The position numbers were made by a program, and so were the translations under genes. From sequence record OL960580: a stretch of DNA of 64,000 nt, one strand, 5' to 3'. This document shows positions 9,971 through 62,781 of this stretch, in pieces. The notes below the pieces were generated by a model. It ran no database searches and was not told the DNA's origin. It saw nothing but the letters and a program-made list of their open reading frames with translations. Every line of letters starts with the position of its first letter. The first letter of the stretch is position 1. The DNA is from Escherichia phage vB_EcoM_SA21RB.

Positions 9971-10975
9971 TTAACTTACCAATTCAATCCAAGCCGGACG
10001 AAGTACATCTTGTACCATTTTAACTAATTCCTTTTTAATCAAAGAAGGATTATCCGCTTGAGTTAGAGTAATACCTTCACGAGAAGTTTCTTCCAAAATA
10101 TCTTGAACAGTTAGTCCCATCACCTTTCCAAAATCCTTTGGACCAATTTCGCCAATTTTAGAAATAACGTTATTTACTCGGTTCAGTGTAACGTAGCAAG
10201 CTAAAATTCCCAGCAATTTATTATCAGCTTCTGACAACTCAACTTTAGCTTTAATAGGCTTATCAGACTTTTTCTTTTCGCTGAATTTAGAGTTCTTGCA
10301 TTTAATCGCTACGCGATTGCCATTAGGCATCCAAGAAGGATAACAAGGTTTTAATACATAACCTTCAGCGGTAAATACTTCGCCTTTTGCTTCGGCATTC
10401 CAAACGCATTTATTTGCATCAACTAATCCAGCGTGGTCTACCGTAAAATTATAATCCTGGACGACAGAATCTAAATCATTTGGCAATTTAATAAGTTCTT
10501 CAAATTTACCACGACCCAAAAGTGGAGCCATTTTAAATTTGAATGTATTACAGAATGATTCCATCATATAATCATCGACATAAGTCACATCACCACTTTC
10601 TGTAGTAACAATAATGTCAAATACATAAAAATCTTTATCGCCATAATCAACATTCTTCTGAATGCCAGGTCCAGCGAATTCGCCGAAAACTTGATAAGAT
10701 ACAACCGCTGAAGTTTCCATAATATCTTGTACTGCTTTAATGGAATCAGCGTAATTCTTTAGAATAATTTCATACCCAAAGAAATCTTCAGCAGGAAGAA
10801 TCGGTCCAGTACGTTTAGCACAAGTTGCTTTATCGCGTTCAATAATCAGTGAGAAATTTGTGCCATGAATCTTTTCACGAGCTACCCATTCGCCACCAGT
10901 CAATCCTAAACTGTAGAGTTTTTCAATGAATTTAGAATTGTAATGATTTTCAAGACTGCTATACTTTTTAAACAT
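9971..10975 (-). CDS. rnlB: RNA ligase 2 (Rnl2)
   Basis: 334-aa ORF with nucleotidyltransferase motif KIHGTN near the N-terminus; length and position of T4 rnlB. Confidence 0.9.
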
Positions 10976-51441: not shown

Positions 51442-51449
51442 TATAAATA
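51442..51449 (+). promoter_or_regulatory. Late promoter box TATAAATA upstream of gene 34
   Basis: Exact motif 35 nt upstream of the ATG; SD AGGAGC follows. Confidence 0.55.
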
Positions 51450-51483: not shown

Positions 51484-54400
51484 ATGGCCGAGATTAAAAG
51501 AAAGTTCAGAGCAGAAGATGGTCTGGACGCAGGTGGCGATAAAATAATCAACGTAGCTTTAGCTGATCGTGCCGTAGGAACTGACGGTGTTAACGTTGAT
51601 TACCTAATTCAAGAAAACACAGTTCAACAATACGATCCAACTCGTGGATATTTAAAAGATTTTGTAATCATTTATGATAACCGCTTTTGGGCTGCTATAA
51701 ATGATATTCCAAAACCGGCAGGAGCTTTTAATAGCGGACGCTGGAGAGCATTACGTACTGATGCTAACTGGATTACTGTCTCATCTGGTTCATATCAATT
51801 AAAATCTGGTGAAGCTATTTCGGTTAACACTGCAGCTGGTAATGATATTACATTTACTTTACCATCTACTCCAATTGATGGTGATACTATCATTCTCCAA
51901 GATATTGGAGGAAAACCTGGAGTTAACCAAGTTTTAATTGTAGCTCCAGTGCAAAGTATTGTAAACTTCAGAGGCGAGCAAGTACGTTCAGTACTAATGA
52001 CTCATCCAAAGTCACAGTTAGTTTTAATTTTTAGTAATCGTCTGTGGCAAATGTATGTAGCTGATTATAGTAGAGAAGCTGTAGTTGTAACACCAGCGAA
52101 TACTTATCAAGCGCAATCTAATGATTTTATCGTACGTAGATTTACTTCTGCTGCACCGATAAATATTAAACTTCCGAGATTTGCTAATCACGGCGATATT
52201 ATTAATTTCGTCGATTTGGATAAATTAAATCCACTTTATCATACAATTGTTACTACATACGATGAAACGACATCAGTACAAGAAGATGGAACTCATTCCA
52301 TTGAAGGCCGTACATCTATTGATGGCTTCTTGATGTATGATGATAATGAAAAATTATGGAGACTGTTTGACGGGGACAGTAAAGCACGTTTACGTATCAT
52401 AACAACTAATTCAAACATTCGTCCAAATGAAGAAGTTATGGTATTTGGTGCGAATAATGGAACAACTCAAACGATTGAGCTTCAGCTTCCAACTAATATT
52501 TCTGTTGGTGATACTGTTAAAATTTCCATGAATTACATGAGAAAAGGACAAACAGTTAAAATCAAAGCTGCCGGTGAAGATAAAATTGCTTCTTCAGTTC
52601 AATTGCTGCAATTCCCAAAACGTTCAGAATATCCACCTGAAGCTGAATGGGTGACTGTTCAAGAATTAGTTTTTAACGGTGAAACTAATTATGTTCCAGT
52701 TTTACAACTTGCTTATATAGAAGATTCTGACGGAAAATACTGGGTTGTACAACAAAACGTTCCAACTGTAGAAAGAGTTGATTCTTTAAATGATTCTACT
52801 AGAGCAAGATTAGGCGTGATTGCTTTAGCTACACAAGCGCAAGCTAATGTCGATTTAGAAAATTCTCCACAAAAAGAATTAGCAATTACTCCAGAAACAT
52901 TAGCTAACCGTACTGCTACAGAAACTCGTAGAGGTATCGCAAGAATAGCAACTACTGCTCAAGTAAATCAGAACACCACATTCTCTTTTGCTGATGATAT
53001 TATCATTACTCCTAAAAAGCTGAATGAAAGAACTGCTACAGAAACTCGTAGAGGTGTCGCTGAAATTGCTACACAACAGGAAACTAATGCAGGTACTGAT
53101 GATACTACAATCATTACTCCTAAAAAGCTTCAAGCTCGTCAGGGTTCTGAATCATTATCTGGTATTGTAACCTTTGTATCTACCGCAGGAGCTACTCCAG
53201 CTTCTAGTCGTGAATTAAATGGTACAAACGTTTATAATAAAAACACTAATAATTTAGTTGTTTCGCCTAAAGCTCTGGATCAGTATAAAGCTACTCCAAC
53301 ACAACAAGGTGCAGTAATTTTAGCAGTTGAAAGCGAAGTAATTGCTGGACAGAGTCAAGAAGGATGGGCAAATGCTGTTGTAACGCCAGAAACGTTACAT
53401 AAAAAGACATCAACTGATGCAAGAATTGGTTTAATTGAAATTGCTACACAAAGTGAAGTTAATACAGGAACTGATTATACTCGTGCAGTCACTCCTAAAA
53501 CTTTAAATGACCGTATAGCAACTGAAAGTTTAAGTGGTATAGCTGAAATTGCTACGCAAGTTGAATTCGACGCAGGCGTCGACGATACTCGTATCTCTAC
53601 ACCATTAAAAATTAAAACTAGATTTAATAGTACTGATCGTACTTCTGTTGTTGCTCTATCTGGATTAGTTGAATCAGGAACTCTCTGGGACCATTATACC
53701 CTTAATATTCTTGAAGCAAATGAGACACAGCGTGGTACACTTCGTGTGGCTACACAAGTTGAAGCTGCTGCAGGAACATTAGATAATGTTTTAATAACTC
53801 CTAAAAAGCTTTTAGGTACTAAATCTACCGAATCGCAGGAAGGTGTTATTAAAGTTGCAACTCAGTCTGAAACTGTAACTGGAACGTCAGCAAATACTGC
53901 TGTATCTCCAAAAAATTTAAAATGGATTGTACAGAGTGAACCTACTTGGGCAGCTACTACTGCGATAAGAGGCTTTGTTAAAACTTCATCTGGATCAATT
54001 ACATTCGTTGGTAATGATACAGCTGGTTCTACGCAGGACTTAGAGCTATACGAGAAAAATAGCTATGCAGTATCACCATATGAATTAAACCGTGTATTAG
54101 CAAATTATTTGCCATTAAAAGCAAAAGCTGCTGATACAAATTTATTGGATGGTCTAGATTCATCTCAATTCATTCGTAGGGATATTGCACAGACGGTTAA
54201 TGGTTCACTAACCTTAACCCAACAAACGAATCTGAGTGCCCCTCTTGTATCATCTAGTACTGCTACGTTTGGCGGATCAGTTTCGGCAAACAGCACATTA
54301 ACTATTTCTAATACTGGAACGGCAACTCGTCTGATTTTTGAGAAAGGACCTCAAACTGGAACTAACCCAGTACAGACGATGACTATCAGAGTTTGGGGAA

Positions 54401-55353
54401 ATCAGTTTGGTGGCGGTTCAGATACAACACGTTCTACTGTATTTGAAGTTGGTGATGAAACGTCTAATCACTTTTATTCTCAACGCAATAAAGCTGGGAA
54501 TATAACGTTTAGTATCAATGGTACTGTAATGCCAATAAATGTTAATGCTTCGGGTTCTTTGAATGCGAACGGCGTTGCAACATTTGGTAGTTCAGTTACA
54601 GCCAATGGCGAATTCATCAGCAAGTCTGCAAATGCTTTCAGAGCAATAAATGGCGACTATGGATTCTTTATTCGCAATGATGCTGCTAACACCTATTTTA
54701 TGCTTACTGCATCGGGTGATCAGACTGGCGGATTTAATGGATTACGTCCTTTAGCTATTAATAATGCATCTGGTCAAGTAACGATTGGTGAAAGCTTAAT
54801 CATTGCCAAAGGTGCTACTATAAATTCAGGTGGTTTAACTGTTAACTCGAGAATTCGTTCTCAGGGCACTAAAACTGCTGACCTATACACCCGTGCACCG
54901 ACATCTGATACTGTAGGATTCTGGTCAATCGATATTAATGATTCAGCTACTTATAACCAGTTCCCGGGTTATTTTAAAATGGTTGAAAAAACTAATGAAG
55001 TGACTGGACTTCCATACTTAGAACGTGGAGAAGAGGTTAAATCTCCTGGTACATTGACTCAATTTGGTAACACACTTGATTCGCTTTACCAAGATTGGAT
55101 TACTTATCCAACGACTCCAGAAGCACGTACCACTCGCTGGACCCGTACATGGCAGAAAACCAAAAACTCTTGGTCAAGTTTTGTTCAGGTATTTGATGGA
55201 GGTAACCCTCCTCAGCCGTCTGATATCGGTGCTTTACCATCTGATAATGCTACAATGGGGAATCTTACTATTCGTGATTTCTTACGAATAGGTAATGTTC
55301 GTATTATTCCTGACCCAGTGAATAAAACGGTTAAATTTGAATGGGTTGAATAA
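51484..55353 (+). CDS. 34: Long tail fiber proximal subunit gp34
   Basis: 1289-aa ORF, length of T4 gp34; internal repeated motifs. Confidence 0.95.
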   Translation: MAEIKRKFRAEDGLDAGGDKIINVALADRAVGTDGVNVDYLIQENTVQQYDPTRGYLKDFVIIYDNRFWAAINDIPKPAGAFNSGRWRALRTDANWITVSSGSYQLKSGEAISVNTAAGNDITFTLPSTPIDGDTIILQDIGGKPGVNQVLIVAPVQSIVNFRGEQVRSVLMTHPKSQLVLIFSNRLWQMYVADYSREAVVVTPANTYQAQSNDFIVRRFTSAAPINIKLPRFANHGDIINFVDLDKLNPLYHTIVTTYDETTSVQEDGTHSIEGRTSIDGFLMYDDNEKLWRLFDGDSKARLRIITTNSNIRPNEEVMVFGANNGTTQTIELQLPTNISVGDTVKISMNYMRKGQTVKIKAAGEDKIASSVQLLQFPKRSEYPPEAEWVTVQELVFNGETNYVPVLQLAYIEDSDGKYWVVQQNVPTVERVDSLNDSTRARLGVIALATQAQANVDLENSPQKELAITPETLANRTATETRRGIARIATTAQVNQNTTFSFADDIIITPKKLNERTATETRRGVAEIATQQETNAGTDDTTIITPKKLQARQGSESLSGIVTFVSTAGATPASSRELNGTNVYNKNTNNLVVSPKALDQYKATPTQQGAVILAVESEVIAGQSQEGWANAVVTPETLHKKTSTDARIGLIEIATQSEVNTGTDYTRAVTPKTLNDRIATESLSGIAEIATQVEFDAGVDDTRISTPLKIKTRFNSTDRTSVVALSGLVESGTLWDHYTLNILEANETQRGTLRVATQVEAAAGTLDNVLITPKKLLGTKSTESQEGVIKVATQSETVTGTSANTAVSPKNLKWIVQSEPTWAATTAIRGFVKTSSGSITFVGNDTAGSTQDLELYEKNSYAVSPYELNRVLANYLPLKAKAADTNLLDGLDSSQFIRRDIAQTVNGSLTLTQQTNLSAPLVSSSTATFGGSVSANSTLTISNTGTATRLIFEKGPQTGTNPVQTMTIRVWGNQFGGGSDTTRSTVFEVGDETSNHFYSQRNKAGNITFSINGTVMPINVNASGSLNANGVATFGSSVTANGEFISKSANAFRAINGDYGFFIRNDAANTYFMLTASGDQTGGFNGLRPLAINNASGQVTIGESLIIAKGATINSGGLTVNSRIRSQGTKTADLYTRAPTSDTVGFWSIDINDSATYNQFPGYFKMVEKTNEVTGLPYLERGEEVKSPGTLTQFGNTLDSLYQDWITYPTTPEARTTRWTRTWQKTKNSWSSFVQVFDGGNPPQPSDIGALPSDNATMGNLTIRDFLRIGNVRIIPDPVNKTVKFEWVE
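52860..53950 (+). repeat. Tandem coding repeats (about 120-bp / 40-aa units) within gene 34
   Basis: Exact 24-bp ACTGCTACAGAAACTCGTAGAGGT at 52911 and 53031; recurring ATTACTCCTAAAAAGCT (ITPKKL) units. Confidence 0.8.
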
Positions 55354-55361
55354 GAGGTATT

Positions 55362-56477
55362 ATGGAAAAATTTATGGCAGAGTTTGGACAAGGATATGTC
55401 CAAACGCCATTTTTATCGGAAAGTAATTCAGTAAGATACAAAATAAGTATAGCGGGTTCTTGCCCGCTTTCTACTGCAGGACCACACGTTAAATTTCAGG
55501 ATAATCCTGTCGGAAATCAAACATTTAATGCAGGTCTTCATCTAAGAGTTTTTGACCCTTCCACAGGAGCATTAGTTGATAGTAAGTCATATGCTTTTTC
55601 TACTTCAAACGATACTACATCGGCTGCTTTTGTTAGTTTCATGAATTCTTTGACGAATAACAGACTTGTTGCTATATTAACTAGCGGAAAGGTTAATTTT
55701 CCTCCTGAAGTAGTATCTTGGTTAAGAACCGCAGGAACGTCTGCTTTTCCATCTGATTCTATATTGTCAAGATTTGACGTATCATATGCTGCCTTTTATA
55801 CTTCTTCTAAAAGAGCTATTGCATTAGAGCATGTTAAACTGAGTAACAGAAAAAGCACAGATGACTATCAAACTATTTTAGATGTTGTATTTGACAGTTT
55901 AGAAGACGTTGGAGCTACGGGATTTCCTAAAAGAACATACGAAAGCGTTGAGCAATTTATGTCAGCAGTCGGTGGAACTAATAACGAAATTGCACGTCTA
56001 CCAACTTCAGCTGCCATAAGTAAATTATCTGACTATAATTTAATTCCTGGCGATGTTCTTTATCTCAAAGCACAGTTATATGCTGATGCCGATTTACTTG
56101 CGCTTGGAACTACAAATATATCTATCCGTTTTTATAACGCATCGAATGGATATATTTCCTCGACACAAGCTGAGTTTACCGGACAAGCTGGGTCTTGGGA
56201 ATTAAAGGAAGATTATGTAGTTGTTCCAGAAAACGCTGTCGGATTTACGATATACGCACAGAGAACTGCGCAAGCTGGTCAAGGTGGCATGAGAAATTTA
56301 AGCTTTTCTGAGGTGTCAAGAAATGGAGGTATTTCGAAACCTGCTGAATTTGGCGTCAATGGCATTCGTGTTAATTATATCTGTGAATCTGCTTCACCTC
56401 CGGATATAATGGTACTTCCTACGCAAGCATCGTCTAAAACTGGTAAAGTGTTTGGGCAAGAATTTAGAGAAGTTTAA
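55362..56477 (+). CDS. 35: Long tail fiber hinge connector gp35
   Basis: 371-aa ORF with SD AAGAGG. Confidence 0.92.
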   Translation: MEKFMAEFGQGYVQTPFLSESNSVRYKISIAGSCPLSTAGPHVKFQDNPVGNQTFNAGLHLRVFDPSTGALVDSKSYAFSTSNDTTSAAFVSFMNSLTNNRLVAILTSGKVNFPPEVVSWLRTAGTSAFPSDSILSRFDVSYAAFYTSSKRAIALEHVKLSNRKSTDDYQTILDVVFDSLEDVGATGFPKRTYESVEQFMSAVGGTNNEIARLPTSAAISKLSDYNLIPGDVLYLKAQLYADADLLALGTTNISIRFYNASNGYISSTQAEFTGQAGSWELKEDYVVVPENAVGFTIYAQRTAQAGQGGMRNLSFSEVSRNGGISKPAEFGVNGIRVNYICESASPPDIMVLPTQASSKTGKVFGQEFREV

Positions 56478-56482
56478 ATTGA

Positions 56483-56506
56483 GGGAGCCTTCGGGTTCCC
56501 TTTTTC
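56483..56506 (+). terminator. Rho-independent terminator after gene 35
   Basis: GGGAGCC-UUCG-GGUUCCC hairpin followed by UUUUUC. Confidence 0.7.
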
Positions 56507-56508
56507 TT

Positions 56509-56516
56509 TATAAATA
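56509..56516 (+). promoter_or_regulatory. Late promoter box TATAAATA upstream of gene 36
   Basis: Exact motif 24 nt upstream of the ATG. Confidence 0.55.
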
Positions 56517-56539
56517 CTATTAAAATAAAGGGGCATACA

Positions 56540-57205
56540 ATGGCTGATTTAAAAGTAGGTTCAACAACCGGAGGCTCTGTCATTTGGCATCAAGGAAATT
56601 TTCCATTGAATCCAGCCGGTGACGATGTACTCTATAAATCATTTAAAATATATTCAGAATACAATAAACCACAAGCTGTTGATAACGATTTCGTTTCTAA
56701 AGCTAATGGTGGTACTTATGCATCAAAGGTAACATTTAATGCTGGTGTTCAAGTACCATATGCTGTAAACAATACAAACCCGTGCGGTATTTATCCAGGT
56801 AACGGTGATAATGCTACTTTTGCTGTAGCAAATATCGATATTGTTTCGTGGAATGGTATTGGTTTTAAATCATCACAGGGTTCAGCAGCCCGAACTGTTG
56901 TAATTAATGCACGTAATGGTGATATTAGCACAAAAGGTGTTGTATCAGCTGCGGGTCAAGTAAGAAGTGATGCAGCTGCTCCTATAGCAGCGAATGACCT
57001 TACTAGAAAGGACTATGTTGACGGAGCAATAAATACTGTTACGGCAAATGCGAACTCTAGAGTGTTACGATCTGGTGATACTATGATTGGAAACTTAACC
57101 GCACCAAACTTTTTCTCACAGAATCCTGCATCTCAACCTTCACATGTTCCACGATTTGACCAAATCGTAATTAAGGATTCTGTTCAAGATTTCGGCTATT
57201 ATTAA
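56540..57205 (+). CDS. 36: Long tail fiber distal connector gp36
   Basis: 221-aa ORF, length of T4 gp36. Confidence 0.92.
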   Translation: MADLKVGSTTGGSVIWHQGNFPLNPAGDDVLYKSFKIYSEYNKPQAVDNDFVSKANGGTYASKVTFNAGVQVPYAVNNTNPCGIYPGNGDNATFAVANIDIVSWNGIGFKSSQGSAARTVVINARNGDISTKGVVSAAGQVRSDAAAPIAANDLTRKDYVDGAINTVTANANSRVLRSGDTMIGNLTAPNFFSQNPASQPSHVPRFDQIVIKDSVQDFGYY

Positions 57206-57213
57206 GAGGACTT

Positions 57214-60200
57214 ATGGCTACTTTAAAACAAATACAATTTAAAAGAAGCAAAACCGCAGGTGCACGTCCTGCTGCTTCAGTATTAGCCGAAGGTGAATTG
57301 GCTATAAACTTAAAAGATAGAACAATTTTTACTAAAGATGATTCAGGAAATATCATTGACTTAAGCATTTCCGCTGGCGGTAATATCAGTGGAAATATCA
57401 CTCAAACTGGTGATTATACACAGACTGGAAAATTTAATTTAATTGGCCCGCAGATTATAGCAAGTGGTGGATATATTGAGTTTAATTATCGTACTACTGG
57501 AAGTGGGGCTTGGTCCGGTCAACACACTGCAAAAGCTCCAATTTTTGTAGATTTAAGCTCAGCTACTTCCACATCTGAATATAATCCTATAATTAAACAG
57601 CGCTTTAAAGATGGAACTTTTTCATTAGGTACTTTAGTTTCTGAAGGTTCGTTAAAGATTCATTATATTGATGAAACTGGTCAATCTAAATATTGGACAT
57701 TTGCGCGCTCAGGTAATTTTCAAGTTGATTCTGGTAATTTATTAGTATCTGGTGGATATTTAGTCGCTCAGAGTAATATTGAAACAAGAACAGGTTCTTT
57801 GATTGGTCCATCTGTTGTAACTAAAAATATTTCATTTGATACGAAAGCGTTTGGACAATACGATTCGCAGTCATTAGTTCAATATGTTTATCCTGGAACT
57901 GGTGAAACAAACGGAATTAATTACCTTCGTAAATTCCGTGCAAAATCTGGTGGTACGATTTATCATGAATTAGCTTCTGCACAAACCGGAAAAAGTGATG
58001 AACTGTCTTGGTGGACCGGTAATACAGCCGTTAATAAACAAATGGGCCTTCGCAATGATGGGTCTTTAGTATTGCGACGCTCACTCGCAATTGGTACAAT
58101 TACAACAGATGAAAACATTAATAATTACGGCTCCACTGGAGCAATGGGTGAATGCTATATAGTCATTGGAGATGCCGCAACTGGTATATCATATAAAAGA
58201 TCTGGTGTATATGATTTAGTTGCTAATGGTCTTTCTATCGCGTCTATTACTCCTGACAGTTTCCGTAGTACTCGTAAAGCATTATTTGGACGTTCAGAAG
58301 ACCAAGGTGCAACTTGGATTATGCCAGGTACGAATGCTGCATTTTTATCAGTTCAAACACAGGCTGATGAAAACTCTGCTGGAGATGGTCAAACCCACAT
58401 TGGATATAACTCTGGCGGTAAAATGAACCACTATTTCCGTGGTAAAGGAAAAACTAATATTAATACTCAAGAAGGCATGGAAGTTAACCCGGGTATTCTT
58501 AAACTAGTAACCGGTGCAAATAATGTAATGTTTTATGCTGATGGCGGTATTACATCTGTTAAGCAGCTTTCAATATATAACGGCATATATTTAGCAGCTA
58601 ATAATTCTACTGCTGGGCTGACATTCGCTCCAACTACTACAATTGATGGTACTAAGCAAATCATGTGGGAAGGCGGTAAGCGTGCTGGTCAAAATAAAAG
58701 CTATGTAACCGTTAAAGCGTGGGGTAATTCATTTAACGCATCTGGCGATCGTAATCGTGAAACAGTTTTTGAAGTAGCTGACGGACAAGGTTATTATTTT
58801 TATTCCCAGCGTGTAGCCCCAAGCGGCTCAGAAACTACTGGTCCTGTTGTAACCCAGTTTGCTGGAGCTGTTAATGCTAGAGGAAGTATTATTACTGACG
58901 GAAGTTTTAAAGTTAATGGATTAAGCACTTTAGTCGGTAATGTTACCATGTCTAATGGTTTGTTTGTCCAAGGTGGTTCTTCTATTACTGGACAAGTTAA
59001 AATCGGCGGAACTGCTGATGCATTAAGAATTTGGAATGCCGAATATGGTGCTATTTTCCGTCGCTCAGAAAGTAATCTTTATATTATCCCGACTCTTAAA
59101 GATGCTGGAGAATCTGGCGGTATAAGTAATCTTAGACCATTGATAATAGAACTGAACACCGGCACAGTTAAAATGTCGCATGATGTTCATTTAGGAGATT
59201 CTGGATCTGGTACAGGATTATTACAAGTAAGTAATAGTCTTAAAACTATTAAAATGATATGTCCAGTAACTATTAATGAACGTAATGCAGCGCTTACTCT
59301 AGATTCTCCTTCATCTTCTTCTGCTAATTATTTGCAGGGTTCTAAAGCTGGAACTAGATCGTGGTATGTTGGTCTTGGTGGTGCTGGAAATGATTTATCA
59401 CTTTATAGCCAATCTTATGGACATGGTCTTGTTATAAGTGATAATTTCGTGTCAATCACTAAACCCTTTAAAGTCGGAAATGCCCAACTAGGAACTGACG
59501 GTAATATTACTAGCGGTTCAGGAAACTTTGCTAACTTAAACACCACGCTAAATCGTAAAGTTAATTCTGGATTTATTACTTATGGAGCAACTGCTGGATG
59601 GTATAAGTTTGCAACAGTAACAATGCCACAATCCACTTCTACGGTCTTCTTTAAAATAGCCGGTGGTTCTGGATTTAATAGTGGATTATTCACACAATGC
59701 AATATTGCTGAAATTGTTTTACGTACTAGTAATGAAAGACCTGCTGACTTAAATGCTGTATTATACACAAGAACAATTGCAGCTGCATTTAAAAATATTG
59801 CAGTTAATAACGTCTCTGGAGATACATATGACATTTATGTTTATGCCGGAACATATTGCAATCAATTAACTTGTGAATGGTCATGTACCGAAAATGCTAC
59901 TGTTAGCGTTATTGGTATTAACTCATCTACCCAATCACCTGTGGATGCTCTTCCAGATACAGCAGTTGATGGGCAAGTTGCTAATGTTCTTAATAACTTG
60001 GTTGATCGCGGCAAAGTTAAGCGTTATGAAGCCGATTCTGAAATAGCTATTAATAACCAAACTGGTATTCGTATTAGAAGCAACAGCGATAAAACTGGTT
60101 CTGTTGCTACAATGCTACGAAATGATGGCAGTAGTTTTTATATTCTGTTTACAGATAAAAATGCCACCGATGGCGAAGCAACTGTTAACGGTGATTGGAA

Positions 60201-60996
60201 TAGTAAGCGTCCTTTCGCAATTAACTTAACAACAGGCGAAGTATTAATGAATAACGGCATAGCTGTTCGCAGTGCTGCTTTATTCTATAATAGCATAAAT
60301 GTCAAAGATAATGGTTCTATTAACTTTGATAAGTCTGGTGCTAACCCAAGAAATATGAGAATATTTCATGCTGGCGATGCTTCTCGTGGTAACCGTATTG
60401 AAATTGCCGATGAAACTAACTATATTGCTTACTTTGAAAAAGCTCCAGGTGGAGCTAACCGTTTTGTAGTAAATAATGCTACTGTAGCTGGTGTTAACCA
60501 AATGAATTCATTTGGTATTAATATCAATAACGCACTTGGTGGAAATAGTATAGCATTTGGCGATAGCGATACTGGTATTAAGCAAAATGGCGATGGATTA
60601 TTAGACATATATGCGAACAGTGTACAAGTATTCCGTTTCCAAAACGGTGATTTGTACTCATATAAAAATATAAATGCTCCAAACGTTTATATTCGTTCTG
60701 ATATTCGTTTAAAATCCAACTTTAAACCTATCGAAAATGCACTTGATAAAGTTGAAAAACTTAACGGTGTCATTTACGATAAAGCTGAATACATCGGTGG
60801 AGAGGCAATTGAAACTGAAGCAGGTATTGTGGCTCAAACGTTGAAAGACGTTTTACCAGAAGCCGTCCGTGAAACAGAAGATAGCAAGGGTAATAAAATA
60901 CTCACTGTTTCTTCTCAAGCCCAGATTGCTCTTCTGGTTGAAGCTGTGAAAACACTTTCTTCTCGTGTAAAAGAACTTGAATCTAAACTTATGTAA
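57214..60996 (+). CDS. 37: Long tail fiber distal subunit gp37 (T2-type, with C-terminal intramolecular chaperone domain)
   Basis: 1260-aa ORF with SD AAGAGGA; longer than T4 gp37 (1026 aa); C-terminus carries an SDIRLK chaperone-like signature. Confidence 0.92.
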   Translation: MATLKQIQFKRSKTAGARPAASVLAEGELAINLKDRTIFTKDDSGNIIDLSISAGGNISGNITQTGDYTQTGKFNLIGPQIIASGGYIEFNYRTTGSGAWSGQHTAKAPIFVDLSSATSTSEYNPIIKQRFKDGTFSLGTLVSEGSLKIHYIDETGQSKYWTFARSGNFQVDSGNLLVSGGYLVAQSNIETRTGSLIGPSVVTKNISFDTKAFGQYDSQSLVQYVYPGTGETNGINYLRKFRAKSGGTIYHELASAQTGKSDELSWWTGNTAVNKQMGLRNDGSLVLRRSLAIGTITTDENINNYGSTGAMGECYIVIGDAATGISYKRSGVYDLVANGLSIASITPDSFRSTRKALFGRSEDQGATWIMPGTNAAFLSVQTQADENSAGDGQTHIGYNSGGKMNHYFRGKGKTNINTQEGMEVNPGILKLVTGANNVMFYADGGITSVKQLSIYNGIYLAANNSTAGLTFAPTTTIDGTKQIMWEGGKRAGQNKSYVTVKAWGNSFNASGDRNRETVFEVADGQGYYFYSQRVAPSGSETTGPVVTQFAGAVNARGSIITDGSFKVNGLSTLVGNVTMSNGLFVQGGSSITGQVKIGGTADALRIWNAEYGAIFRRSESNLYIIPTLKDAGESGGISNLRPLIIELNTGTVKMSHDVHLGDSGSGTGLLQVSNSLKTIKMICPVTINERNAALTLDSPSSSSANYLQGSKAGTRSWYVGLGGAGNDLSLYSQSYGHGLVISDNFVSITKPFKVGNAQLGTDGNITSGSGNFANLNTTLNRKVNSGFITYGATAGWYKFATVTMPQSTSTVFFKIAGGSGFNSGLFTQCNIAEIVLRTSNERPADLNAVLYTRTIAAAFKNIAVNNVSGDTYDIYVYAGTYCNQLTCEWSCTENATVSVIGINSSTQSPVDALPDTAVDGQVANVLNNLVDRGKVKRYEADSEIAINNQTGIRIRSNSDKTGSVATMLRNDGSSFYILFTDKNATDGEATVNGDWNSKRPFAINLTTGEVLMNNGIAVRSAALFYNSINVKDNGSINFDKSGANPRNMRIFHAGDASRGNRIEIADETNYIAYFEKAPGGANRFVVNNATVAGVNQMNSFGININNALGGNSIAFGDSDTGIKQNGDGLLDIYANSVQVFRFQNGDLYSYKNINAPNVYIRSDIRLKSNFKPIENALDKVEKLNGVIYDKAEYIGGEAIETEAGIVAQTLKDVLPEAVRETEDSKGNKILTVSSQAQIALLVEAVKTLSSRVKELESKLM
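60697..60996 (+). other. Predicted self-cleaving intramolecular chaperone domain at the gp37 C-terminus (about 99 aa from Ser1162)
   Basis: Motif IRSDIRLKSNFKPIENALDKV resembles tail-spike and fiber chaperone domains that auto-cleave before the Ser. Confidence 0.55.
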
Positions 60997-60997
60997 A

Positions 60998-61015
60998 AGA
61001 GGGCTTCGGCCCTCT
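60998..61015 (+). terminator. Stem-loop AGAGGGC-UUCG-GCCCUCU after gene 37
   Basis: 7-bp stem with UUCG tetraloop; weak U-run. Confidence 0.45.
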
Positions 61016-61026
61016 AAGGATTTTTA

Positions 61027-61821
61027 ATGGCAATTGTAGGTGTTCCTGGCTGGATTGGCGAATCTGCCGTGAATGAAACTGGACAACGCTGGATGGATGC
61101 TGCAATGAAAGCAGTTCGTGTTTCAGTTCCTGGTTGGATGAGCTCAATGGCTGGGCAATCTAAAGAAGTATATTACAGTATTGGCGCTAGTAATTCATAT
61201 AATAAAGACACGCTAATAAATTATCTCAAATCTCAAGGTAGTACTCCTGTTGTTGTTACTATTACAGGAAATATTGTTTCTTCATCAGCTGGGCAACCTT
61301 GCTTAGATTTTCCTAGTTCATTAACTAATGCTTATGTAACGCTTATTATAAATGGTGGCGTAACAGTATATGGTCGTGGTGGTCGTGGCGCGCAAGCGGG
61401 AAACCAGGCAGGCCAAGCTGGCGGTACTGCAATTAACAATGGTATAGGTACTCGTCTACGAATCACTAACAATGGAGCGATTGCTGGCGGTGGTGGCGGT
61501 GGTGGCGCCCAATCAACTGATAATGGATGGGGAGGTAAATATGTTTCTGGCGGTGGCGGTGGACGTCCTTTCGGAGCTGGTGGCAATAATGGCGCAGCAG
61601 CCCCGGGCGCATCGGCATCTTTAACATCTCCAGGTGCAGGCGGAAAAATGTATTCCGGCGTTGGATACTACGGCGGCGATGGCGGTAACGTTGGTGAACG
61701 AGGTAAGGATGCGGTTAGATTGAGCGGCTATTCGAACTCCCCCGGCGCGGCTGGTAAAGCTGTTACTGGTAACGCTCCAACTTGGACTAAAGTTGGTACA
61801 ATATATGGTGCAAGAGTATAA
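61027..61821 (+). CDS. 38: Tail fiber adhesin gp38 (T2-type receptor-recognising protein with glycine-rich motifs)
   Basis: 264-aa ORF; N-terminus MAIVGVPGWIGESAVNETGQRW; several poly-Gly motifs separated by variable segments. Confidence 0.9.
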   Translation: MAIVGVPGWIGESAVNETGQRWMDAAMKAVRVSVPGWMSSMAGQSKEVYYSIGASNSYNKDTLINYLKSQGSTPVVVTITGNIVSSSAGQPCLDFPSSLTNAYVTLIINGGVTVYGRGGRGAQAGNQAGQAGGTAINNGIGTRLRITNNGAIAGGGGGGGAQSTDNGWGGKYVSGGGGGRPFGAGGNNGAAAPGASASLTSPGAGGKMYSGVGYYGGDGGNVGERGKDAVRLSGYSNSPGAAGKAVTGNAPTWTKVGTIYGARV

Positions 61822-61851
61822 TTTGAATAAATATCCTTAAAAGGAGGGTCT

Positions 61852-62508
61852 ATGGCAGCACCTAGAATATCATTTTCGCCCTCTGATATTCTGTTGGGTG
61901 TTCTAGATCGCTTGTTCAAAGATAACGCTACCGGGAAAGTTCTTGCTTCCCGGGTAGCTGTCGTAATTCTTTTGTTTATAATGGCGATTGTTTGGTATAG
62001 GGGAGATAGTTTCTTTGAGTACTATAAGCAATCAAAGTATGAAACATACAGTGAAATTATTGAAAAGGAAAGAACTGCACGCTTTGAATCTGTCGCCCTG
62101 GAACAACTCCAGATAGTTCATATATCATCTGAGGCAGACTTTAGTGCGGTGTATTCTTTCCGCCCTAAAAACTTAAACTATTTTGTTGATATTATAGCAT
62201 ACGAAGGAAGATTACCTTCAACAATAACCGAAAAATCACTTGGAGGATATCCTGTTGATAAAACTATGGATGAATATATAGTTCATTTAAATGGACGTCA
62301 TTATTATTCCGACTCAAAATTTGCTTTTTTACCAACTAAAAAGCCTACTCCCGAAATAAACTACATGTACAGTTGTCCATATTTCAATTTGGATAATATC
62401 TATGCTGGAACAATAACCATGTACTGGTATAGAAATGATCATATAAGTAATGACCGCCTTGAATCAATATGTTCTCAGGCGGCCAGAATATTAGGAAGGG
62501 CTAAATAA
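61852..62508 (+). CDS. t: Holin T
   Basis: 218-aa ORF with SD AAGGAGGG; single N-terminal transmembrane segment and large C-terminal domain. Confidence 0.92.
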   Translation: MAAPRISFSPSDILLGVLDRLFKDNATGKVLASRVAVVILLFIMAIVWYRGDSFFEYYKQSKYETYSEIIEKERTARFESVALEQLQIVHISSEADFSAVYSFRPKNLNYFVDIIAYEGRLPSTITEKSLGGYPVDKTMDEYIVHLNGRHYYSDSKFAFLPTKKPTPEINYMYSCPYFNLDNIYAGTITMYWYRNDHISNDRLESICSQAARILGRAK

Positions 62509-62781
62509 TTATTTGTTTGTATACATCTCTAGATATCGATATACACCCTCAAAACCCTCGTTGAATTCGTCGATGAGGGTTTTCTTATCTTCTTGAGTTA
62601 ATTCAGAAACAATTTTACGGAATGAATTCTGATTCAACTTTCTACCTTCATGCGTTACTCCAATCTCATTCAGAAATGCAATAAAATTAGCGCGATTCTC
62701 AACAATATCTTCTCTGGAAAATTTAATCAAAATAGACGCAACAGTAATAATTTCACGAACTGTATCAATATTTTTATTCAT
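62509..62781 (-). CDS. asiA: AsiA anti-sigma70 factor
   Basis: 90-aa ORF, N-terminus MNKNIDTVREIITVASILIKF. Confidence 0.92.
   Translation of the reverse strand: MNKNIDTVREIITVASILIKFSREDIVENRANFIAFLNEIGVTHEGRKLNQNSFRKIVSELTQEDKKTLIDEFNEGFEGVYRYLEMYTNK

Follow-up and report, generated by a model that had tools for sequence, protein, structure and literature searches.

Gene 38 of Escherichia phage vB_EcoM_SA21RB most probably encodes a monomeric T2-type adhesin of the long tail fibre, with a KRT47-type allele that was gained by recombination and OmpC as its most probable receptor; we assign this reading as a whole a probability of about 0.85. The gene was found in the 64,000-nucleotide stretch of DNA that was analysed (sequence record OL960580, hereafter the window), where an open reading frame listing places it at positions 61027..61821 of the + strand with an ATG start and a product of 264 residues, as given in a preliminary description of this DNA. 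It starts 30 nt past the gene 37 stop (60996) and its end is followed, again after 30 nt, by the start of the holin gene t (61852). The same order, 37, 38 and holin t, is present in T2, T6, KRT47 and RB51.

The assignment of the gene 38 product (gp38) to a known kind of protein, the T2-type gp38 tail fibre adhesin, is based on profile, structure and genome matches. The Pfam model GP38 (PF05268, "Phage tail fibre adhesin Gp38") matches residues 47–264 with an E value of 2.6e-72 (243.6 bits, cut-off 25) and is covered end to end (profile positions 1–218 of 218), while the Gp38_N model (PF21721) matches residues 1–42 with 7.3e-18 (64.7 bits, cut-off 25). Over residues 1–264 there is also a PHROG match, to family 2056 ("tail fiber protein; host specificity"; 2.2e-101). 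Phmmer searches against the PDB gave near whole-length alignments to the receptor-binding domain of PP01 gp38 (9V85; 4e-55) and to S16 gp38 bound to the gp37 tip (6F45_D; 1.2e-45), and the closest relative, the gp38 of Shigella phage SP21535, is nearly identical (see below). Glycine makes up 23% of gp38 overall and 34% of residues 115–245; because the Pfam GP38, Gp38_N and PHROG 2056 models all match, this richness is attributed to homology and not to a chance effect of composition. A fold consisting of a β-helix and a polyglycine-II sandwich is very likely, since the alignments to both solved structures span the whole domain. A single-sequence AlphaFold2 model, which was built without an alignment, had a mean pLDDT of 32.4 and a pTM of 0.23, too low for it to be used. 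An antisense open reading frame at 61332-61586 (84 residues, proline-rich) and two short overlapping frames mirror the GGN glycine codons and were rejected as genes.

To describe the anatomy of the adhesin we aligned gp38 with nine others, those of KRT47, Sf22, PP01 and S16 (OmpC), T2 (FadL), T6 and Bas39 (Tsx), AV119 (OmpA) and RB51 (OmpF), with receptors taken from bioRxiv 10.64898/2026.04.02.716166 (supplementary Table S1), PMC12032242 and PMC12892980. All identities per segment come from this explicit alignment; the low-complexity filter of tblastn splits matches at the glycine runs (53–56% "coverage"). Across the ten adhesins, with five different receptors, 61 columns are invariant and essentially all glycines of the glycine-rich motifs (GRMs) are among them. 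Five GRMs follow one another in fixed order with four hypervariable segments (HVS) between them, and identity in the HVS drops to 0–40% across receptor classes. The alternation of glycine motifs and variable segments that had been proposed for this protein is thus borne out by the alignment; the role of the variable segments in setting porin choice is known from the literature (PMC3157838, PMC12032242, bioRxiv 10.64898/2026.04.02.716166). The preliminary description quoted four glycine strings, each of which occurs once: GRGGRGAQAG from residue 116, GGGGGGGA from residue 154, GGGGGRPFGAGG from residue 175 and GGDGG from residue 216. A fifth motif, GAAGKAV (residues 240–246), is also present and conserved, and the canonical description of gp38 has five glycine motifs, GRM1–5 (Trojet 2011, PMC3157838).

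The protein begins with an N-terminal domain (residues 1–42; 61153 is the first nucleotide after it, the domain spanning 61027..61152; this and all following features are on the + strand) that corresponds to Gp38_N and is 95–100% identical to T2, Bas39 and KRT47. This is the conserved gp37-attachment region anticipated from the first reading of the DNA, and by analogy with the S16 gp37-gp38 structure (PMC12892980) it is predicted to dock on the gp37 trimer at its tip. The β-helix part of the receptor-binding domain follows (residues 43–114; 61153..61368), as aligned to the PP01 and S16 gp38 structures, and shares 98% of its residues with KRT47, 86% with Bas39 and 61% with T2. GRM1 (YGRGGRG, residues 115–121; 61369..61389), in which the ten adhesins all share G116, R117, G118, G119 and G121, leads into the variable part of HVS1 (AQAGNQAGQA, residues 122–131; 61390..61419). 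A conserved GGTAINNGIGTRLRITNNGAIA segment (residues 132–153; 61420..61485), which has many invariant columns and is 59–100% identical over all references, separates HVS1 from GRM2 (GGGGGGG, residues 154–160; 61486..61506), where G155–G160 are invariant and G154 is nearly so. HVS2, AQSTDNGWGGKYVS (residues 161–174; 61507..61548), is followed by GRM3 (residues 175–186; 61549..61584), which consists of the GGGGGRPFGAGG string and has G175–G179, R180, P181, G183 and G186 as invariant residues. HVS3 (residues 187–215; 61585..61671), GRM4 (GGDGGNVG, residues 216–223; 61672..61695; G217, G219, G220 and G223 invariant) and HVS4, ERGKDAVRLSGYSNSP (residues 224–239; 61696..61743), complete the variable region, and GRM5 with the conserved C-terminus (residues 240–264; 61744..61818) is 96–100% identical to KRT47, Sf22 and Bas39.

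The gp38 of PP01 (E. coli O157; 9V85; OmpC) has the same fold elements, its glycine motifs all align with those of the window protein, and the two are 54% identical over the receptor-binding domain. Using the numbering of the PP01 paper, which we verified on 17 of 17 named residues, PP01 loops A and B correspond to gp38 residues 122–127 in HVS1 and 164–173 in HVS2, loops C and D to residues 187–192 and 207–214 in HVS3, and loop E to residues 230–236 in HVS4. PP01 residues K168/Y169, Y209 and Y230 are important, with Y209 essential (PMC12892980), and are conserved in the window protein as K171/Y172, Y214 and Y235. The two proteins differ in loop A (AQAGNQ in the window, WAAGAI in PP01) and loop E (VRLSGYS versus NPGAGYS), loop D is two residues longer in the window protein, and the β-helix part is 36% identical. 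The gp38 of S16 (Salmonella; 6F45; OmpC) is built of the same three parts, N-terminal attachment region, β-helix and polyglycine-II sandwich, with 48% identity overall; the two phages also align in the tip and chaperone domain of gp37, but the HVS are essentially unrelated (7–27%).

Alignment of the inter-glycine segments with adhesins of known receptor, the check proposed for this protein, gave a clear answer. HVS1, HVS2, HVS3 and HVS4 are 90, 100, 96 and 93% identical to those of KRT47 and of Sf22, both OmpC phages. The next best match is PP01 (20, 50, 68 and 37%), which leads outside the KRT47/Sf22 group in HVS2, HVS3 and HVS4. In the same order, identities are 10, 7, 27 and 12% to S16, 20, 21, 31 and 10% to T2, 30, 0, 26 and 17% to T6, 40 (4 of 10 residues), 7, 26 and 17% to Bas39, 23, 6, 27 and 15% to AV119 and 10, 28, 27 and 21% to RB51. 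Thus, no segment exceeds 40% identity to the Tsx-, OmpA-, OmpF- or FadL-binding adhesins, or 31% to those of T2, T6, AV119 and RB51. All four HVS of the window protein belong to the ime09/KRT47/Sf22 allele. The gp38 proteins that carry this allele, from KRT47, Sf22 (Shigella), ime09 (E. coli), CrRp10 (Citrobacter), ECP2301 and ESh26, are 264 residues long and 97.3–98.5% identical to the window protein. Their gp37 shafts differ from that of the window, KRT47 gp37 being 57% identical over the first 1023 residues. When the C-terminal 160 residues were searched by tblastn, the cassette proved rare: of 50,697 records, only those of about eight phages contain it, including ESh26, ECP2301, KRT47, ime09, Sf22, CrRp10 and SP21535; the remaining records matched in the conserved C-terminal tail only.

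KRT47 and Sf22 reportedly require OmpC, and resistance mutations fall in OmpC loops 5 and 7 (Tinney et al. 2022, as cited in PMC12892980 and PMC11654681). That it is gp38 which makes these two phages depend on OmpC is itself an inference, and this counts against the receptor assignment. Because all four HVS are those of the ime09/KRT47/Sf22 allele, for which OmpC dependence is reported, OmpC is the best receptor prediction for the window gp38, and we regard it as likely to be correct. At the DNA level, gene 38 differs from that of KRT47 at 52 of 795 nt, but of the 50 codons affected 46 still encode the same amino acid, which indicates strong purifying selection on the whole protein, loops included, across the allele group. 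An identity of 97–98% is nevertheless no guarantee of the same receptor, since a single substitution in HVS3, Q206L, switches a gp38 from OmpF to OmpW (bioRxiv 10.64898/2026.04.02.716166).

This consideration applies to a sub-allele that the window shares only with SP21535 (PQ615101.1). The gp38 of this Shigella phage is identical at 263 of 264 residues, including every hypervariable residue, the single difference being C-terminal (A262 versus S). Both proteins have I83, Q130, A191 and S233 where the rest of the allele group, six phages, has L, E, K and N. Three of these four differences from KRT47 lie in the HVS, Q130 in HVS1, A191 in HVS3 and S233 in HVS4, and two of them remove a charge. 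S233 aligns with A228 of PP01, the tip of loop E that enters the OmpC cleft, where an Asp abolished infection (PMC12892980). It is therefore conceivable, if unlikely, that E130Q, K191A and N233S retargeted the adhesin to other OmpC variants, for example of the Shigella sonnei type, or to another surface molecule; a change of the receptor itself is less likely than a change of OmpC-allele preference. The retention of E, K and N in 6 of 6 other members, the loop-E position of residue 233, the isolation of SP21535 on S. sonnei, the importance ascribed to electrostatics in the binding of Sf22 and KRT47 to OmpC (PMC12892980) and the one-residue switch from OmpF to OmpW all speak for such a shift. 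Against it, the neighbouring residue Y230 of PP01 tolerated 16 of 19 substitutions and the backbone shape of the loop dominated over the side chains (PMC12892980), the three substitutions are conservative in size, and the other 66 hypervariable residues are the same as in KRT47. If retargeting did occur, the SP21535-type sub-allele would amount to a natural switch of host range through three residues, on a scaffold that is otherwise fixed.

The origin of the KRT47-type cassette can be read from DNA identity profiles. In a sliding comparison with T4, identity is 90–98% through genes 34–36, declines where gene 37 begins and is not regained before t. Identity to Bas39 (FriedrichMiescher) is 96–100% through gene 37, is reduced (to 71% and 53%) solely in the bins covering 61234-61733 and then returns to 94–99%. 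Within gene 38 the block that diverges from Bas39 spans approximately nt 190–720, and identity is back to 95% from nt 721 of the gene. The KRT47-type allele arrived by recombination, as is read directly from these profiles: a Bas39-type gp37 and gp38 frame was retained and the cassette was replaced, with the right junction at GRM5. The window phage, like SP21535, thus has a Bas39-type distal fibre with a KRT47-type cassette in place of the Tsx cassette. Similar exchanges, located at conserved motifs or close to them, are known from earlier work (PMC3157838). DNA identity to SP21535 is approximately 100% from gene 36 through gene 38 but just 94–98% in genes 34, 35 and t on either side, so the 36-37-38 module was shared with this phage very recently, more so than the rest of the genome.

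The same frame raises the question of whether gp38 binds Tsx, or another porin that is not OmpC, as the Tsx-binding Bas39 shares the rest of the distal fibre. Its gp37 is identical to that of the window at 1248 of 1260 residues, the N- and C-termini of the window gp38 are of the Bas39 type (97% and 96%), the Bas39 receptor is Tsx (bioRxiv 10.64898/2026.04.02.716166, supplementary Table S1), and among the receptors predicted for gp38 proteins Tsx is the most frequent (PMC12032242). However, specificity sits in the HVS, and an experimental gp38 swap from HVS2 onward sufficed to change Tsx to OmpA (bioRxiv 10.64898/2026.04.02.716166). It is exactly over the HVS region, the replaced cassette of approximately residues 65–239, that DNA identity to Bas39 collapses, and the HVS identities to Bas39 and to T6 given above are correspondingly low. 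We consider a receptor other than OmpC on these grounds very improbable, and OmpC remains the preferred assignment.

The neighbouring genes place the adhesin in a T4-like long tail fibre locus, with genes 34, 35, 36 and 37 identified upstream by Pfam and PHROGs. Identities to T4 and T2 are 95.5% and 93.1% for gp34, 97.8% and 96.5% for gp35, 91.4% and 79.6% for gp36, and 97.2% in both cases for holin t; for gp34 and gp35, where T2 is nearly as close, "T4-like" is not a diagnostic label. Gene 36 (56540..57205; Pfam Phage_T4_gp36, 1.8e-43) encodes the distal hinge connector and gene 37 (57214..60996; PHROG 1699, 5.8e-300) the distal half-fibre subunit of 1260 residues that carries gp38. This gp37 is identical to that of SP21535 at 1258 of 1260 residues. 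It is 99% identical to T2 gp37 over the first 100 residues and 93.9% over the last 165, and to T4 gp37 it is 66% identical over the first 100 residues and 49.5% over residues 1–832, with no significant similarity beyond. These values uphold the claim that the locus is a mosaic relative to T4, T4-like in genes 34–36 and T2-like in 37–38. The arrangement with a gp38 adhesin is predominant in the T4 superfamily (Trojet et al., PMC3157838) and a mosaic of this kind is therefore the norm.

The C-terminal module of gp37 (residues 1096–1260; 60499..60993) is of the T2 type, with a gp38-docking tip and an intramolecular chaperone, and has no T4 counterpart. Residues 1104–1258 align to the S16 gp37 fragment that was crystallised with gp38 (6F45_A; 1.9e-12). 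The chaperone domain (residues 1162–1260; 60697..60993) starts with SDIRLKSN, and the SD(I/R)R(L/I)K motif that marks the start of such domains lies within the 6F45_A alignment. Peptidase_S74 matches residues 1162–1219 (9.3e-15), there is a further match to the MYRF autoprocessing domain 7DC3, and cleavage of the domain from gp37 is predicted. A terminator-like scan of the gap that separates gene 38 from gene 37 found a GC-rich hairpin with a TTCG loop (UUCG in the RNA; 60998..61015), which is followed directly by an AAGGA ribosome-binding site (61016-61020). On the right, the variable module is bordered by the conserved holin t (61852..62508; 218 residues; Pfam Phage_holin_T, 4.7e-117). The late promoters that T4-like phages use at this locus are of the TATAAATA type. 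A pattern search located such a motif at 56509..56516, upstream of genes 36-37-38, which by its likeness to the T4 late-promoter consensus is a putative promoter, and a second motif of this type at 51442. A scan of 56400-62600 for sigma-70 promoters gave 24 sites, not above the chance expectation of 19.8 ± 3.8, and a scan of the whole window found no tRNA genes.

The gp38 of T4 is an assembly chaperone of 183 residues that is not present in the virion, and the tip of T4 gp37 itself binds OmpC/LPS (T4 RefSeq note and established knowledge). It has only its gene position, between 37 and t, in common with the window gp38. BLASTP of the two proteins found no similarity beyond a five-residue match (E = 0.65), so that an end-to-end alignment with T4 gp38 is absent and the adhesin assignment stands; no T4-type gp38 was found anywhere in the 64-kb window (best tblastn E = 8.5). 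A T4-type receptor-binding tip was likewise not found in gp37, the last approximately 430 residues of which show no significant similarity to T4 gp37 (0–16% per 100 residues). That the window gp38 is an assembly chaperone only, absent from the virion as in T4, has a negligible chance of being correct: the GenBank product name "distal long tail fiber assembly catalyst" of its homologues in ime09, RB18, teqhal and teqsoen suggests such a role, but these names follow gene order and not similarity, no sequence similarity to T4 gp38 was found, a homologous adhesin is seen on the gp37 tip in crystal structure 6F45, homologous adhesins cross-link to OmpC (PMC12892980), and the T4 RefSeq note calls the "gp38" of the T2 subfamily unrelated and identifies it as the adhesin. 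The preliminary description's choice of a T2-type adhesin over a T4-type chaperone is in accord with the Pfam, PHROG and PDB matches. T2 itself (FadL/OmpF), the prototype of the family, has its gp38 at the same gene position and of similar length (262 versus 264 residues), with 95% identity over the N-terminal 42 residues, 63% overall and 10–31% in the HVS.

Judged by homology to S16 and T2, the adhesin would be assembled and act as follows. The gp37 trimer would form with the aid of the intramolecular chaperone domain (from S1162) that gp37 itself carries C-terminally and that would then be cleaved off, and the N-terminal 42 residues of gp38 would dock on the gp37 tip thus exposed. The five glycine-rich motifs would pack into a polyglycine-II sandwich from which the four HVS would protrude as five loops that touch the outer-membrane protein of the host. 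As in PP01, the main contacts to OmpC may be made by loop E (residues 230–236) and loop D (residues 207–214).

The kind of protein, its architecture, recombinational exchange at conserved motifs and receptor prediction from adhesin similarity have all been published already, and a near-identical gp37-gp38 pair is public in GenBank (SP21535). Several GenBank records misname the protein, as "assembly catalyst" in some and as "hypothetical protein" in others; in the SP21535 record both gp37 and gp38 carry the latter label. For host-range use or engineering of the phage, our analysis names OmpC as the first receptor to test, together with the residues to mutate.

The DNA identity profile of the window against Shigella phage SP21535 (PQ615101.1) is approximately 100% over the distal half-fibre module, comprised of genes 36, 37 and 38 (window positions 56734–61734), while genes 34, 35 and t, which flank this module, show only 94–98% identity. 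This difference suggests that the whole module was recently exchanged between two genomes that are otherwise diverged. The profile also contains a local dip in the C-terminal third of gp34 (54234–54733) against all four comparison phages, where identity is 74–85% to T4, 70–72% to T2 and 86–96% to SP21535 and the Tsx phage Bas39. Outside of this dip the gp34 gene is 92–98% conserved, and the dip is probably another small exchanged patch.

In a pattern search, exact copies of the T4 late-promoter consensus, TATAAATA, are located at 51442–51449, approximately 35 nt upstream of the gene 34 start, and at 56509–56516, approximately 24 nt upstream of the gene 36 start. The exact motif was not found by this search before genes 37, 38 or t. 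Thus, the motif distribution is consistent with genes 36, 37 and 38 forming a single late transcript. Two GC-rich hairpins with a TTCG loop (UUCG in the RNA) are located in the gaps after gene 35 (56481–56502) and after gene 37 (60998–61015), in both cases immediately ahead of the following gene's ribosome-binding site. In the terminator-like scan, such sites were more common than in shuffled sequences (10 compared to 3.6 ± 1.6).

Residues 58–126 of gp35, the proximal hinge connector (55362–56477), match the Pfam ILEI family (Interleukin-like EMT inducer, a FAM3-type domain) at 3.4e-08, with a score of 34.3 bits where the family cut-off is 27. A "GG" domain common to phage gp35 and the FAM3/POMGnT1 proteins was described previously, and the match is therefore probably already known.

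The annotation of the gp38 adhesin in public records is inconsistent. It is labelled "hypothetical protein" in SP21535 (positions 10001–10795 of locus L009), as is the gp37 of this phage, and in ESh26. In E. coli phage ime09 (positions 101–895 of locus L013), RB18, teqhal and teqsoen it bears the product name of the T4 chaperone, "distal long tail fiber assembly catalyst". The chaperone name on these T2-type adhesins is inherited through gene order, without sequence similarity to T4 gp38.

Near-identical gp38 proteins can be combined with very different gp37 shafts, as revealed by comparison of the window gp37 (57214–60996) with that of Shigella phage KRT47. The two gp37 proteins share 57% identity over residues 1–1023 and 93% over the last 165 amino acids. 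From these alignments, the adhesin appears to move as a pair with the gp37 tip, independently of the shaft.
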